Virus record (IMG/VR): IMGVR_UViG_3300037067_004487
Coordinates: 697-64,696 of that record
DNA: 64,000 nucleotides
Source: a virus
Taxonomy: Duplodnaviria > Caudoviricetes
Reading direction: 5' to 3' (one strand)
Shown here: piece after piece, positions 2,834-57,740 of the stretch
How the letters are laid out: every line of letters begins with the position of its first letter
Numbering within the stretch: position 1 is the first letter of the stretch
Translations under genes and position numbers: made by a program
The notes under the pieces: model-generated
What the model saw: only the letters and a program-made list of their open reading frames with translations
Told to the model about the DNA's origin: nothing
Database searches by the model: none

Positions 2834-3814
2834 GTGCTCACAAGTCTATTTGAAAAAGCCAAGAACGTCAACGCAGATCAGCGCGGCGACACGATCTCGT
2901 ACATCCTGCGTGCCATGGTGGCGCGCAGCAAAGACGGGGTGATCAACATCGCTCCGGGCATTGCGAAGCGCATCTTGGATGAGCTGAACTTCCCCGGCCA
3001 GCGAAAGGTGAGCGAGTCCCGTGTGTATGGACATCGCTACGCCATCATCAAAGGCGACTGGCTGGAGGGCCACGCCATCACGTTTGCCGAGCTGCCCGAT
3101 GGCAGGGTGCTGCTTGTGGATGGGCAGCATCGCCTGACCGCCATATCTCAATCTGAAGCATCAGTCCCCGTGACGGTGCGCATCGTGCCGGTTGAAAACA
3201 TCAAGGAAGCGCAGCAGTTCTACACCGGCTTTGATCAGAAAAACTCAGTTCGCACGGACAAGCAGATTCTGGACGCGGTTGAGGCGTCGCGCGAGACCGG
3301 CCTGACCACTCGCATGACTATTGCGTTGTATGCCGCGACCCCTTTGTTGCTGAACGACCTTGAGCCGGTCTCAGGGTATGGCATGAAAAACAAGAATCTG
3401 TCTTTGTTCATGCAGCACAACAGACTGGCAGCGCTGCACGAATGGGCCAAGGAAGCGCGCGCTTACAGCGTGTTGATCAAGCCCGCCACAAAAGAACTGG
3501 CTTCTGGACTTCGACTCCCCGGAGTCATGGCTGTGGGGTTGTACACCTTGCGTCACCAGCCAGCCAAGGCACAAGAATTTTGGACAGGAATGGCGAACCA
3601 GGATGGCTTGCGCAAGAACGACCCGAGGGCCACTCTCTATCGGGACATTCTCACGCGCTCGCTCAATATGGGAAGCATCCGCCAGCGCGTGCAGATGCCA
3701 GCGCTGGCATGGAACGCATGGTGCGAAGGGCGCGACCTCAAGATCATCAAGTGCATCGAGGGCGCATCGCTGGCGCTGTGGGGAACGCCGTTGGCGAAAG
3801 GGCGCGCGGCATGA
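2834..3814 (+). CDS. ParB/Srx-fold (DGQHR-type) protein
   Basis: LLVDGQHRLTAI motif. Confidence 0.7.
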   Translation: MLTSLFEKAKNVNADQRGDTISYILRAMVARSKDGVINIAPGIAKRILDELNFPGQRKVSESRVYGHRYAIIKGDWLEGHAITFAELPDGRVLLVDGQHRLTAISQSEASVPVTVRIVPVENIKEAQQFYTGFDQKNSVRTDKQILDAVEASRETGLTTRMTIALYAATPLLLNDLEPVSGYGMKNKNLSLFMQHNRLAALHEWAKEARAYSVLIKPATKELASGLRLPGVMAVGLYTLRHQPAKAQEFWTGMANQDGLRKNDPRATLYRDILTRSLNMGSIRQRVQMPALAWNAWCEGRDLKIIKCIEGASLALWGTPLAKGRAA

Positions 3815-54162: not shown

Positions 54163-55340
54163 GCTGCACCGCCTTCCTTGGCTTGGGCGCGGGCGGCGGC
54201 GTTAATGGCGTCGCGCAATGTGCGGCCATGGACTGCTGTGTCCTCGTACCCATATTCAACCTCCCATCGGATTGGTCCGTTGAACCCTTTGCGGACGCGC
54301 TGGATACGCACGTTTCCGACGCGCTCGATTAGTTCGATCAGCGCATCCCCCTGCGCTACTGGCGCTGGCTGCGGCAAGGTGTCAAGCGCAGCCGGGTAAG
54401 CCCACAAACAGTCCCAAGTCCCGAAGTGCTTGCCTAGTGGGAAATCTGCTTTGAAACTTCCGCCAGTGTGCCTCCCGGTATAAACACGGCCTTCGTGCTT
54501 GAAAAGCACCGGCTCACCAATGTTCGGCAAGTATCGATCCTGCGATTTGTCGCACGGGTTGACCCAGACCGAATGCTCCTGCGCTGCCACTGGTGGCTGG
54601 GGTGCTGTCTTGGCAGGGGTTGCTGGAAATCGTCGAAGCTCAAGCAGGGCGCGGCGCAAGACGTTGACAGGCTCAAATGCGCCACGGTCATTGCCATTGA
54701 CACGAGCGATGAAGTCGTCCACGTCAAACAGCGCTTGGGCGACGGCATCGACATCGACCGGAACCGCCACAGCGGCAGGCGCATGGCTGAGAATGCTGGC
54801 AATGAGCTGCGCCACATTGCAGTCCGCGTAGCCATCATCGGCCACAGCTCCGATCCACTCGGGCGTCGGTCGAACTGGCACCAGCCGCCACCCATCCGGC
54901 ACCGCCACTGCGGCAGGCGCTGCCACCTGATCTACCGAGGACTGCTCGGCAGTTTCCATCACCTTGCCTTCGTTGTAGCCAAGCTCCCATGCGATACCGC
55001 ACACGTCAGTGCACGGGTTCTCGATCTCTTTTCCTGCTGACTGGGCATAGCGGCCCTTTCCAACACCCATCTCATAAGCGGTGGTGATGGCGAGAACATG
55101 GATGCGATCTGGTTTTGATTGCTCGGCAGTTGCCCGCTGCCCGAGCAGCTCCATGATGGAATCAGCCAGTTCTGCAGGCGTGTCGGACTCGCCCACGTCC
55201 GAGAAATCGTCTTCGCTCATCGTGCCCACACTCCATGCAGACCAAACTCGGTCGCAGTGGTAGGTGCCGCTCAGGCGAGCGGCGATGAGGTCGATCAGCT
55301 TCTCGCGCTGGGCAGCGTCATTGATAGTGGTGGTCGTCAT
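54159..55340 (-). CDS. Mosaic Ead/Eaa-like early protein
   Basis: Patchwork with a PAAVAVPDGWRLVPVRPT module; start ATG 55340. Confidence 0.65.
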   Translation of the reverse strand: MTTTTINDAAQREKLIDLIAARLSGTYHCDRVWSAWSVGTMSEDDFSDVGESDTPAELADSIMELLGQRATAEQSKPDRIHVLAITTAYEMGVGKGRYAQSAGKEIENPCTDVCGIAWELGYNEGKVMETAEQSSVDQVAAPAAVAVPDGWRLVPVRPTPEWIGAVADDGYADCNVAQLIASILSHAPAAVAVPVDVDAVAQALFDVDDFIARVNGNDRGAFEPVNVLRRALLELRRFPATPAKTAPQPPVAAQEHSVWVNPCDKSQDRYLPNIGEPVLFKHEGRVYTGRHTGGSFKADFPLGKHFGTWDCLWAYPAALDTLPQPAPVAQGDALIELIERVGNVRIQRVRKGFNGPIRWEVEYGYEDTAVHGRTLRDAINAAARAQAKEGGAA

Positions 55341-55561
55341 TGAAAATCCCATCGAATGCAGTCCGCCGCCACGCAGCGGCCATAGGTCTGCCCCTGAGCC
55401 GTCACCCTGAAATTCAGGCGGCTCTTGCACTTGGGGCAGGCGATGTGCCCGGACACAGGAGCCTCGGGCTTGAATGTGGGGGGCTTGCAGTGCAAGGTGC
55501 GCACCAGGGCAATGGCGCGAGCCGTGGGGTCGCGCAGGGCGAGGTAGGCGGAGGTGGTCAT
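55337..55561 (-). CDS. Small Zn-finger protein
   Basis: CPKCKS..CVAADC; ATG overlaps the stop of the beta frame. Confidence 0.6.
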   Translation of the reverse strand: MTTSAYLALRDPTARAIALVRTLHCKPPTFKPEAPVSGHIACPKCKSRLNFRVTAQGQTYGRCVAADCIRWDFQ

Positions 55562-56979
55562 GCCTCACTCCTCAGCGGCACGCCGCACAAGCTCCACAAG
55601 TGCCACTGCAGCCTGCAGCGGTACGACGCCATTTCCGACTTGACGGAGCTGGTGAGCGCGGGATTCGTCCACCACCACGGCCAGCCCATCAGCCACGCCC
55701 CGAACGCCGGGTTCAGTCGCCGGGGCGAGCCATGGGGCAGCCTGCGCGATGTCTGCCCATCGTGCGTCTGTTGGGCCTGGCGCAAAAAGTGGTGCTCCAC
55801 GTAGTCGGGGAGCTGATCCATGTGTTTGCGCCCCGTCCCGTTCACCTCGACGTGCGCCGTGGAGTTCGTCCCCTTCCAGTATCGGCTCGCTGGCGTGGGC
55901 CACTGCGCCGCCGCGCTCGGCAGCATCAGGTCGCCCTTGCTCCCCGCTTGATTCGGCCCGCCCTTCGTTCCATCCGTCGCCCGTGGCGTCGGCCATTGCT
56001 GGGCCTGCCCCGTCAACGTCAGGCGCTCCATGCCCTTCTGGCCCCGGTCGCGCGTGTATTCGTTCCCCTGCGAGTTCGATACGCTCGGCGTCATCCAGAG
56101 CACCGCATCCCGGTTCAGGTTGCCGCCCTGGGTGCTCGCCAGGTCGGCTCCCGGCCTGCGGCCATCGTGGGCGTTGGGCGTGGCCCACAGCTTGGCCGCC
56201 AGCGCTATCGTCGGCCGCGCGGTGGCGTTCGGTGATGTGGAGCGGTTGATGCGTTCGTGTCCCGTGTCCGGGGTCGGCCACATCGGTGCATTCCAGTACG
56301 CGGCTTCTGTCGGTAGCCCGGTTGTCCGTTTTGTTGCCGCACAGCGCTGCGCCGATGGGTCGATCTTGCTCATGTCGCGCGCGCCGCTGCATACATCCGG
56401 CGTTGTCCACATCCCGCCGCCAGGCAAGGCAAAACCAGCGGCTGCGCCCATGGCTGGCGCCCACGTCGGACGCGGAAATAGTGAGCCATTCCGCGTCCCA
56501 CCCGCGGTCGGCCAGTTCTCCCACGACGCGGGCGGCCGCGCGCTCTTCGAGAGCGCCTTCGGCTTCGTCCACAGCGGTGGCTGTGGCAGTAGCGATGGCT
56601 GCGACGTTCTCCAGAAAGAGGAGCTGCGCACCGCAATCGTCGGCGAGAGTGAGGATGTCGAAGAACAGGCCCGAGCGCTTGCCATCGAGGCCAGCACGCC
56701 GGCCGGCGATGCTGATGTCTTGGCACGGGAAGCCCGCAATGAGGAAATCCACGCATCCGCGCCACGCTGCGCCTCGGAAGGTGAGCAGGTCAGACCAAAT
56801 AGGACACGGATCAAGCGCTCCCGCTTCCATAAGGCGGGCAAGCTGTGCGGCAGCAGGGGCTTCCCGCTCCACGTAGCAAACGGTTCGGTGCTCGACGCCG
56901 AGATACTCGAATCCGGCCCTTGCGCCTTCTCCGAGCATGCCGACGCCGGCGCACAACTCGATGGAATGTAGAGCCACAT
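55558..56979 (-). CDS. C5-methyltransferase beta-type subunit in an overlapping frame (W-x-T-P repeats + motif IX)
   Basis: Stop-free for about 475 codons; six W-x-T-P repeats; RRLNPAFGAWLMGWP motif IX-like; SD GAAGGA; stop coupled to the next gene. Confidence 0.75.
   Translation of the reverse strand: MWLYIPSSCAPASACSEKAQGPDSSISASSTEPFATWSGKPLLPHSLPALWKRERLIRVLFGLTCSPSEAQRGADAWISSLRASRAKTSASPAGVLASMASARACSSTSSLSPTIAVRSSSFWRTSQPSLLPQPPLWTKPKALSKSARPPASWENWPTAGGTRNGSLFPRPTWAPAMGAAAGFALPGGGMWTTPDVCSGARDMSKIDPSAQRCAATKRTTGLPTEAAYWNAPMWPTPDTGHERINRSTSPNATARPTIALAAKLWATPNAHDGRRPGADLASTQGGNLNRDAVLWMTPSVSNSQGNEYTRDRGQKGMERLTLTGQAQQWPTPRATDGTKGGPNQAGSKGDLMLPSAAAQWPTPASRYWKGTNSTAHVEVNGTGRKHMDQLPDYVEHHFLRQAQQTHDGQTSRRLPHGSPRRLNPAFGAWLMGWPWWWTNPALTSSVKSEMASYRCRLQWHLWSLCGVPLRSEA
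55565..56977 (-). CDS. C5-cytosine DNA methyltransferase catalytic (alpha) frame
   Basis: IELCAGVGM (I), AGFPCQDIS (IV), FLENV (VI), HGRSRWF (VIII), QLRQVGNGVVP (X); start GTG 56977 or ATG 56992. Confidence 0.9.
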   Translation of the reverse strand: MALHSIELCAGVGMLGEGARAGFEYLGVEHRTVCYVEREAPAAAQLARLMEAGALDPCPIWSDLLTFRGAAWRGCVDFLIAGFPCQDISIAGRRAGLDGKRSGLFFDILTLADDCGAQLLFLENVAAIATATATAVDEAEGALEERAAARVVGELADRGWDAEWLTISASDVGASHGRSRWFCLAWRRDVDNAGCMQRRARHEQDRPIGAALCGNKTDNRATDRSRVLECTDVADPGHGTRTHQPLHITERHRAADDSAGGQAVGHAQRPRWPQAGSRPGEHPGRQPEPGCGALDDAERIELAGERIHARPGPEGHGAPDVDGAGPAMADATGDGWNEGRAESSGEQGRPDAAERGGAVAHASEPILEGDELHGARRGERDGAQTHGSAPRLRGAPLFAPGPTDARWADIAQAAPWLAPATEPGVRGVADGLAVVVDESRAHQLRQVGNGVVPLQAAVALVELVRRAAEE

Positions 56980-56995
56980 GCTCATCCTTCATGAA

Positions 56996-57020
56996 TAAAA
57001 AAGCCCGCATGTGGCGGGCT
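56996..57020 (-). terminator. Intrinsic terminator just upstream of the MTase
   Basis: Minus strand AGCCCGC-CACAT-GCGGGCT followed by a U tract. Confidence 0.7.
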
Positions 57021-57106
57021 CAAGTGGGGGTGGCGAAAAAGCACCGCAGGGCTGAAACTCAGTGCTCGCGGTACAACAAGGGCTCATGCAATTTGTGGAG
57101 AACCAC

Positions 57107-57346
57107 ATGACAGAAGCTCGGTTTGGAATCCGCGTTCGCAACGCTGCTGGCGAAGTGGCCACGATCTATCAATGCGGGACGCTGATCCTCGGTCGCGCAA
57201 GGGGCGAAGCCCAGACAACAAAACCGAGACCCCTGCGATACGAGACCGCAGATGGCAAGCCGTTGACGGAGCGTGAGCCCTCTCCGGAGGGGAGACGGTC
57301 ATGGACAGACCCGGCTACGAACGAGCACTTCACCGAGCGCTCATAA
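57107..57346 (+). CDS. Moron-like hypothetical protein (counter-oriented)
   Basis: GGAG SD; opposite strand to the surrounding operon. Confidence 0.55.
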   Translation: MTEARFGIRVRNAAGEVATIYQCGTLILGRARGEAQTTKPRPLRYETADGKPLTEREPSPEGRRSWTDPATNEHFTERS

Positions 57347-57440
57347 GACGTCTCCGGATGGCTTCCGAAATTGAAGCGCAGGGCTCAATTGGCATAGCGC
57401 GGCTACATTGATCGGGGTTGAAACGCTTTGGAGCCGCACG

Positions 57441-57686
57441 ATGCATAAGCTCGACAAGAAAACCTTGGCGATGCTTCGAAATTGGAAGAACAAATACGGC
57501 CTTGACGTCATAGAAGACCGCCTTGACAGCGGCCTTTTCCACAACGACAAAGCCATGCAGCAGGCTTGCTATGCGTGGATACGGGCACAACGAGCCGCGC
57601 CCGTGATCCTTCTAGCCGTCAAGTTCGTTTTCGGTCTGGCTGTTTTCCTTGGCGCTATAGCTAGCGTGATTGCCGTGTTCAAGTAG
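57441..57686 (+). CDS. Moron-like membrane protein
   Basis: GGAG SD; C-terminal TM VILLAVKFVFGLAVFLGAIASVIAVF. Confidence 0.6.
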   Translation: MHKLDKKTLAMLRNWKNKYGLDVIEDRLDSGLFHNDKAMQQACYAWIRAQRAAPVILLAVKFVFGLAVFLGAIASVIAVFK

Positions 57687-57740
57687 CCCCTTGCGCTGCG
57701 CGGGAGAAAAACCAGCCCGCAGGGTGTCGGGCTGTGGACA

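Follow-up and report, generated by a model that had tools for sequence, protein, structure and literature searches.

The stretch of viral DNA analysed here, a window of 64,000 nucleotides (positions 697 to 64,696 of the IMG/VR record IMGVR_UViG_3300037067_004487; Duplodnaviria, Caudoviricetes), contains a C5 cytosine methyltransferase (C5-MTase) locus of 1.4 kilobases (kb) that is very probably dual-coded, with two same-strand open reading frames (ORFs), called frame A and frame B, that are both open from end to end over the same DNA. Their products are likely to be two polypeptides that form one C5-MTase together, in which A would act as the large catalytic domain and B as the small recognition domain, as judged from the comparison of sequences. 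Relatives keep both frames open and conserve their starts, and along the DNA, purifying selection switches back and forth between the two frames. Each statement on the sequence was verified on the minus strand of the window, and positions are given in window coordinates.

Layout and conservation of the two reading frames

Frame A, the proposed catalytic chain, is located at 55565..56977 on the minus strand and is composed of 470 codons and a TGA, with a GTG start at 56975-56977 and the stop at 55565-55567, inside a stop-free extent of 55565-57010. Frame B, the proposed recognition chain, is frame A shifted by +1 and is located at 55558..56979 on the same strand, with 473 codons and a TGA; it starts at an ATG at 56977-56979 (MWLYIPS) and stops at 55558-55560, and its stop-free extent of 55558-56985 includes a second in-frame ATG at 56983-56985. 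The overlapping starts together read ATGTG, with the start of A lying 2 nucleotides (nt) after the ATG of B, and the sole Shine-Dalgarno-like site before both of them is a GAAGGA (56985..56990, minus) at a spacing of 5 nt to the ATG and 7 nt to the GTG (leader GAAGGA-TGAGC-ATGTG). Similar purine-rich sites precede the paired starts in relatives. At the other end of the locus, the TGA of B shares an ATGA with the ATG of the next gene, and the TGA of A lies 4 nt ahead of that ATG. The two open frames, the shared GAAGGA, the ATGTG starts, and the ATGA coupling had all been described in an earlier reading of the window from its letters alone (the original prediction) and were confirmed on the minus strand. 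The left end of the locus, placed there at 56992, had to be given up, being an upstream in-frame ATG of frame A that is not conserved in relatives.

The motifs of the enzyme are split between the frames in the manner that had been predicted. Frame A possesses motifs I (ELCAGVGMLGEG), IV (GFPCQDIS), VI (FLENV), VIII (SHGRSRWF), and X (QLRQVGNGVVP), and frame B possesses six modules that begin with WTTP, WPTP, WATP, WMTP, WPTP, and WPTP (WxTP), followed by motif IX (RRLNPAFGAWLMGWP). The characters of a C5-MTase, namely, motif I, motif IV with the catalytic cysteine, motifs VI, VIII, and X, and a Rossmann-like large domain, are all found in frame A. A single-polypeptide enzyme has the recognition domain and motif IX between motifs VIII and X; frame A has a low-confidence spacer at this place, and the modules and motif IX are in frame B. 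Pfam PF00145 matches only residues 16-216 of the 481-residue frame A ORF (profile positions 3-182 of 324, E 2.3e-23). In the PHROGs database, phrog_1008 matches residues 236-447 of B and then residues 448-480 of the 481-residue frame A ORF, in profile order, and this colinearity across B and then A indicates that, in single-frame relatives, a single chain combines the modules with motifs IX and X.

The AlphaFold model of A, built from an alignment of 67 sequences, is confident at residues 1-190, with a predicted local distance difference test (pLDDT) score of 85-95; the spacer at 190-397 has a pLDDT of 30-45, residues 400-420 are moderate, and the motif X helix reaches 93. The best Foldseek matches of this model are M.HaeIII, M.HhaI, and DNMT1, over approximately 189 columns that correspond to the large domain. 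The hidden Markov model match of A to M.HhaI spans motifs IV-VI.

An open second frame by chance is excluded. When synonymous codons were resampled with the phage's own codon usage, 7.0 stops were expected in B given protein A, with a probability of none of about 2e-4, and 11.6 stops were expected in A given protein B, with a probability of none below 2e-4. A scan of viral contigs gave 57 loci with 30-58% protein identity, in approximately 45 of which an FPCQ-containing frame and a +1 frame containing WxTP sites overlap stop-free for 0.8-1.6 kb, with 5-22 stops in the third frame; the same two open frames are present in loci of 51-58% GC. The number of stops expected per locus was 1.7-5 for B over the first 122 codons of A and 2.4-10.8 for A over the modules, and none was observed. 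In 26 of the 32 loci examined, the ATG of B precedes the start of A by 2 nt (ATGTG) or 5 nt (ATGACATG), and in one of the relatives (L005), the paired start is the sole A-frame start available. The earlier claim of dual coding is thus borne out by the open frames and the adjacent conserved starts. Frequent interruption of B in homologs, which the original prediction held to speak against its own claim, was looked for, and B was found to stay open in the approximately 45 loci.

The three closest cultured phages all have these two open frames, with differing numbers of modules; they are Acidovorax phages Alfacinha1 and Alfacinha3, in which frame B is the annotated one, and Burkholderia phage phi1026b, in which it is frame A. 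A word-indexed search returned >1,200 B-like and >1,500 A-like called proteins, and an exhaustive search returned 23,913 B-like cluster representatives at E<=1e-3. The short B-like proteins P0305 and P0322, considered as stand-alone recognition subunits, turned out to be truncated gene calls inside the usual two-frame locus. The long B-like proteins (495-885 amino acids), considered as single-chain fusions, have no PF00145 and are therefore not such fusions. The public gene call for the window locus itself (P0003, 55558-56373, minus) is a 271-residue piece of frame B, and gene callers that forbid long same-strand overlaps lead to systematic mis-annotation of the two-frame methylase family.

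Selection along the locus and the WxTP modules

Codon-position diversity was measured in 27 loci, and isolated single-base differences in 26 loci were classed by the frame in which they are silent, for which the random expectation is 21-25% per single-frame synonymous class (23% for the segment of motifs I-VI). Since pairwise counts of differences are not phylogenetically independent, the percentages that follow are descriptive proportions and not P-values. A frame-agnostic nucleotide alignment reproduces the selection figures.

Purifying selection follows the order A, A+B, B, A, B, A along the DNA, and the direction of this frame-specific selection is unambiguous in the aligned loci. The first segment (56615..56977, minus) encodes motifs I-VI of A, and 76% of its isolated differences are synonymous in A only; purifying selection acts here on A only, and the first approximately 115-120 residues of B look like a stop-free, unconstrained passenger. 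The second segment (56420..56614, minus), from ENV to motif VIII of A, overlaps SSFWRTSQ..SWENWPTAGGTRNG of B and is the dual-coding core, in which all three codon positions are constrained: 59% of the differences are synonymous in A only and 28% in B only, differences silent in A as well as in B show a 7-fold enrichment, each of the three positions has low diversity, and invariant residues are present in both frames, with a conserved segment SSFWRTSQ..WENWPTAGGTRNG in the frame of B.

The third segment (55825..56412, minus) comprises the six WxTP modules of B, with tryptophans at B residues 191, 234, 265, 295, 329, and 360, and 68-74% of its differences are synonymous in B only, with purifying selection on B only; the same bases read in A give a spacer rich in Gly, Ala, Arg, Asp, Glu, and Pro, to which the pLDDT of 30-45 belongs. 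The fourth segment (55709..55792, minus), PLFAPGP..LAPATEP of A, lies between two B-selected segments and has 74% of its differences synonymous in A only and is selected in the frame of A. The fifth (55678..55722, minus), with motif IX (RRLNPAFGAWLMGWP) of B, has 78-82% synonymous in B only and is selected in the frame of B. The sixth (55577..55663, minus), with motif X (QLRQVGNGVVP) and its helix in A at a pLDDT of about 93, has 81-82% synonymous in A only and is selected in the frame of A.

The suggestion that selection in the middle of the locus acts on B is in agreement with both the codon-position diversity and the counts of synonymous differences, which place selection at motif X on A. 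The related view that A is empty between motifs VIII and X is contradicted by the conserved PLFAPGP..LAPATEP between the modules and the position of motif IX. Since each ORF has segments that are kept as protein, we infer that both frames are translated. The first approximately 115 residues of B are rich in Ser, Ala, Leu, and Pro and show no amino-acid constraint in relatives, where they never contain a stop and are always ATG-initiated; the simplest reason for a passenger that is stop-free and led by an ATG is that B can start only at the shared 5' site.

The six modules are approximately 30-45 residues long and differ in both length and sequence, sharing only their WxTP start, and DNA-level repeat searches found no tandem array. 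The predicted repeat array therefore stands as a series of six WxTP modules and falls as a DNA tandem repeat, the units being dissimilar beyond their WxTP start. For the typing of modules, 83 B proteins were split at WxTP sites, and the resulting 402 units were clustered. The units form recurring types, including a near-universal WPTPRATDGTKGGPNQ.GSKGDLMLPSA and types beginning with WLTPNVPNGGRSVS.., WATPDCNTSTYSNG.., and WMTPSVSNSQGNEY..., and 82 distinct module orders were found among the 83 proteins, the order in the window being U-C-K-E-B and a terminal unit. This diversity fits modules that are shuffled and swappable recognition cassettes; that the cassettes would be multispecific is a possibility that can be offered only tentatively.

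A proposed two-chain methyltransferase and its alternatives

In the proposed mechanism, ribosomes at the one Shine-Dalgarno would start either at the ATG of B or at the GTG of A two bases on. Chain A would fold as an AdoMet-binding catalytic large domain made up of its N-terminal motifs I-VIII and its C-terminal motif X helix, and these parts would be linked by an unstructured spacer of approximately 200 residues, which is the A reading of the B modules. Chain B would be composed of a passenger of approximately 115 residues, which is the B reading of A motifs I-VI, followed by SSFWRTSQ..WENWPTAGGTRNG, the six WxTP modules, and motif IX, and the conserved segment, the modules, and motif IX together would be the equivalent of the small target-recognition domain. 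Chains A and B would assemble into one active enzyme, like the alpha and beta chains of M.EcoHK31I, and the enzyme would methylate the phage DNA, presumably escaping host restriction. The fixed subunit ratio that had been predicted is plausible from competition between the start codons. A wider reading, which is doubtful enough to be put forward as a conjecture, is that the co-extensive layout is standard in a very large and mostly mis-annotated phage methylase family, in which the WxTP modules would be plug-in cassettes shuffled by recombination, the enzyme would be two-chain and multispecific with its array overprinted on the catalytic linker, and expression would be set by competition between starts 2-5 nt apart.

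Several observations weigh against the two-chain enzyme. The evidence for the translation of A and B comes from sequence comparison only, that for the first approximately 115 residues of B comes only from the missing stops and the conserved ATG, and the proportions of synonymous differences are descriptive, as mentioned above. The Pfam search of frame B gave no family match, the B profile gave only chance-level matches against PDB sequences (E >= 0.2), and B modelled alone has a mean pLDDT of 50.8, being confident only in motif IX and the C-terminal helices. Furthermore, one relative from a bacterial genome (L063) has an in-frame stop in the A spacer, at 3144-3146. This stop splits A into a piece with motifs I-VIII and a piece with motif X, and B is open throughout; the locus may be a pseudogene or a three-chain form, or the stop may stem from a sequencing error. 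An ESM Atlas look-up with B(112-473) returned unnamed viral clusters and one PF00145 cluster (score 0.82), which serves as a lead only.

It is unlikely that both frames are translated and that B is something other than a methylase subunit, for instance, an independent DNA-binding or anti-defence protein overprinted on A. The missing Pfam family would suit such a protein, and so would the Burkholderia phages that run B in frame into a ParB-like protein and the presence of motifs IX and X in A itself in L014, L018, and Shauna1. However, A of the window lacks the recognition domain and motif IX, which are needed by every characterised C5-MTase (PMC3404938), and B has exactly these. In addition, wherever the loci are scorable, motifs I-VIII are always in A and the WxTP modules in B, with no locus having motif IX in both frames, and the PTP modules and motif IX of B align to the matching part of a single-chain methylase.

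This single-chain methylase is gp67 of Mycobacterium phage Shauna1, a protein whose single frame encodes motifs I-VIII, IX, and X together with three LPTP modules. Its alignment to frame A of the window covers motifs IV-VIII and X (E 5e-22), and its alignment to frame B covers the PTP modules and motif IX (E 9e-5). The single-chain loci of Shauna1 (L061:1211-1597) and Gordonia phage MelBins (L062:1604-2029) retain a nested +1 ORF of 128-141 codons, which starts just past ENV and encodes a B-like LPTSGMTRNG and two modules, one of them 86% identical to the fifth module of the window. In both phages, the stretch for PTPRATDGTKGGPNQ.GS.GDLMLPSA has approximately 80% DNA identity to the window despite the phylum-level distance of the hosts. 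As for the Burkholderia phages (phi1026b, L002:1497-3614; P0075, P0098, and P0101), their B lacks the usual stop and extends without a change of frame through a ParB-like gene, to a length of 706-741 residues; this fusion may be real, since it is kept in the P0101 lineage with a clearly diverged ParB part.

The frames of motifs IX and X vary among the relatives. Five loci carry motif IX in A and three carry it in the third frame, and motif X is outside both ORFs in three loci; in L014 and L018, motif IX in A is accompanied by an insert of approximately 150 residues ahead of motif X. The prediction that B supplies motif IX consequently holds for the window and fails for some of its relatives. 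In these loci, which are of the proteobacterial type, a hinge just before RKHMDQL separates the last WxTP module from the IX/X tails. A +1 shift at the hinge (..TGGG/RKHMDQL..) connects the modules with the tail of motif X in L013, L024, and L025, and in L023 and L032, a -1 shift connects the catalytic chain with the tail of motif IX. A run of 7-10 G forms the hinge in L004, L011, L013, L014, L022-L027, and L032 (for example, L024:3500, L032:3353, and L013:1290), where G8 corresponds to the normal phase and other lengths rejoin the modules to the X tail or the catalytic chain to the IX tail, orphaning one motif. The variation of this run could be phase variation, slippage, or homopolymer sequencing error.

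These hinges bear on the explanation that one polypeptide, A(I-VIII) to B(modules, IX) to A(X), is made by programmed frameshifting or transcriptional slippage, with the long ORFs as by-products, which is quite improbable. The order of the motifs across the frames is colinear with that of single-chain enzymes, as this explanation would have it, and the poly-G of 7-10 at the hinge of one clade changes the frames that are joined, making slippage possible in those phages. However, the selection mosaic demands four shifts of frame in one chain, and SSFWRTSQ..TRNG of B and motifs VI-VIII of A share their bases, so that a single chain could not contain both. A conserved slippery site was not seen, the alignment right after motif VIII being too gappy to score, and the window gene has no homopolymer of 6 or more and no hinge G run. 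Recoding also leaves unexplained why B is open over the first 122 codons of A, why A is open over the modules, and why the ATG of B is conserved beside the start of A. The mobility of motifs IX and X among the aligned loci fits cooperating chains better than a fixed recoding site.

Finally, it is highly improbable that one frame only is a gene and the other ORF is a by-product of GC-rich composition or annotation, since, although long spurious ORFs are common in a window of approximately 63% GC and the frame picked by gene callers, A or B, differs between records, a second frame would be stop-free in the window with a probability of <=2e-4, the pattern recurs in approximately 45 loci down to 51% GC that are not near-identical copies (30-58% protein identity), each frame has segments with their own synonymous-site signature, and motifs IX and X, both of them conserved, do not share a frame.

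Genomic surroundings and known methyltransferases

The locus belongs to the early region of a phage of approximately 63% GC, with a RecE-like exonuclease and a DnaQ-like exonuclease upstream. The phage is known from a groundwater metagenome alone: its full stretch is present in one groundwater-metagenome run only, which may be its source, and other sequencing runs have <0.13 of its words. The downstream ORF (55337..55561, minus) has 74 codons and is Cys-rich, with an ATG that overlaps the stop of B (ATGA), and it is context and not part of the enzyme. It has a CPKC ... C..C pattern resembling a zinc ribbon and no PHROG match.

Directly upstream of the ribosome-binding site lies a terminator-like hairpin of eight pairs, six of them G-C, followed by a T run (57001..57021, minus). 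The terminator that had been pointed out there is a real hairpin; the antitermination-dependent expression that was drawn from it is based on the hairpin alone, and most relatives have no hairpin and are coupled to the upstream gene, with a similar hairpin being present in L005. Between the exonuclease gene and the methylase is a stretch of 0.7 kb (57022-57740), flanked by minus-strand terminator-like hairpins at 57734-57713 and 57021-57001, which contains two plus-strand ORFs at 57062-57346 and 57408-57686, the latter with a hydrophobic tail. Neither ORF has a PHROG match, and the stretch may be a moron-like insert.

To our knowledge, bacteria and phages very rarely have same-strand overlaps of >1 kb in which both products function. 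If A and B are both translated, annotations as 'DNA cytosine methyltransferase' or 'hypothetical protein', numbering in the thousands in phages and prophages, would represent half an enzyme, and methylome predictions from the annotated chain alone would fail. The locus would also provide a clean natural system for two proteins that share one sequence, in which the constraint is found in alternating segments and not spread evenly, and in which each protein accommodates a long passenger whose sequence is set by the other. Furthermore, the shuffled WxTP modules would constitute a compact recognition toolkit for a split methyltransferase, relevant to restriction escape and to engineered targeted methylation, a purpose that M.EcoHK31I has already served (PMC2836561).

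M.HhaI, M.HaeIII, the PF00145 enzymes, and Shauna1 gp67 resemble A in their catalytic motifs and large-domain fold, and Shauna1 gp67 resembles the window in its PTP-type modules, motif IX, and motif X as well. Unlike the window, M.HhaI, M.HaeIII, and Shauna1 gp67 have all of their motifs in one frame. The multispecific C5-MTases of Bacillus phages (M.SPRI, M.Phi3TI, and relatives) carry tandem, dissimilar recognition modules between motifs VIII and IX, and the sets of modules differ between related phages. These enzymes have their modules in the catalytic chain, whereas the window has them in the overlapping frame.

C5-MTases are also known in divided form. M.AquI is a two-chain enzyme, and artificial C5-MTase fragments complement each other (PMC2836561, PMC3404938), which together indicate that these enzymes tolerate splits. 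Similar to the window, M.AquI is divided within the variable region, one chain being catalytic and the other having the recognition parts and late motifs (PMC3404938); it differs from the window, in which the overlap is total and motif X stays with the catalytic chain. Literature searches for the two-frame family layout returned M.EcoHK31I, M.AquI, and general reviews only.

M.EcoHK31I of E. coli, which recognises YGGCCR, requires two chains, with beta, the chain of motif IX, encoded in the other frame inside alpha (Lee, Kam & Shaw 1995; PMC2836561, PMC3404938). It is like the window in that two chains are read from different frames of the same DNA, with motifs I-VIII and X in one and motif IX in the other, a likeness that is seen in the window at the sequence level, from its ORFs and selection. 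In M.EcoHK31I, beta is nested in alpha and supplies motif IX only, and the recognition domain is in alpha; in the window, the recognition-like array and motif IX are both in B. The two systems, likened by description, differ further in that the frames of the window are co-extensive (470 and 473 codons), with starts 2 nt apart behind one ribosome-binding site. What is new relative to M.EcoHK31I is therefore the end-to-end overlap, the paired starts, and a whole recognition array in the second frame.

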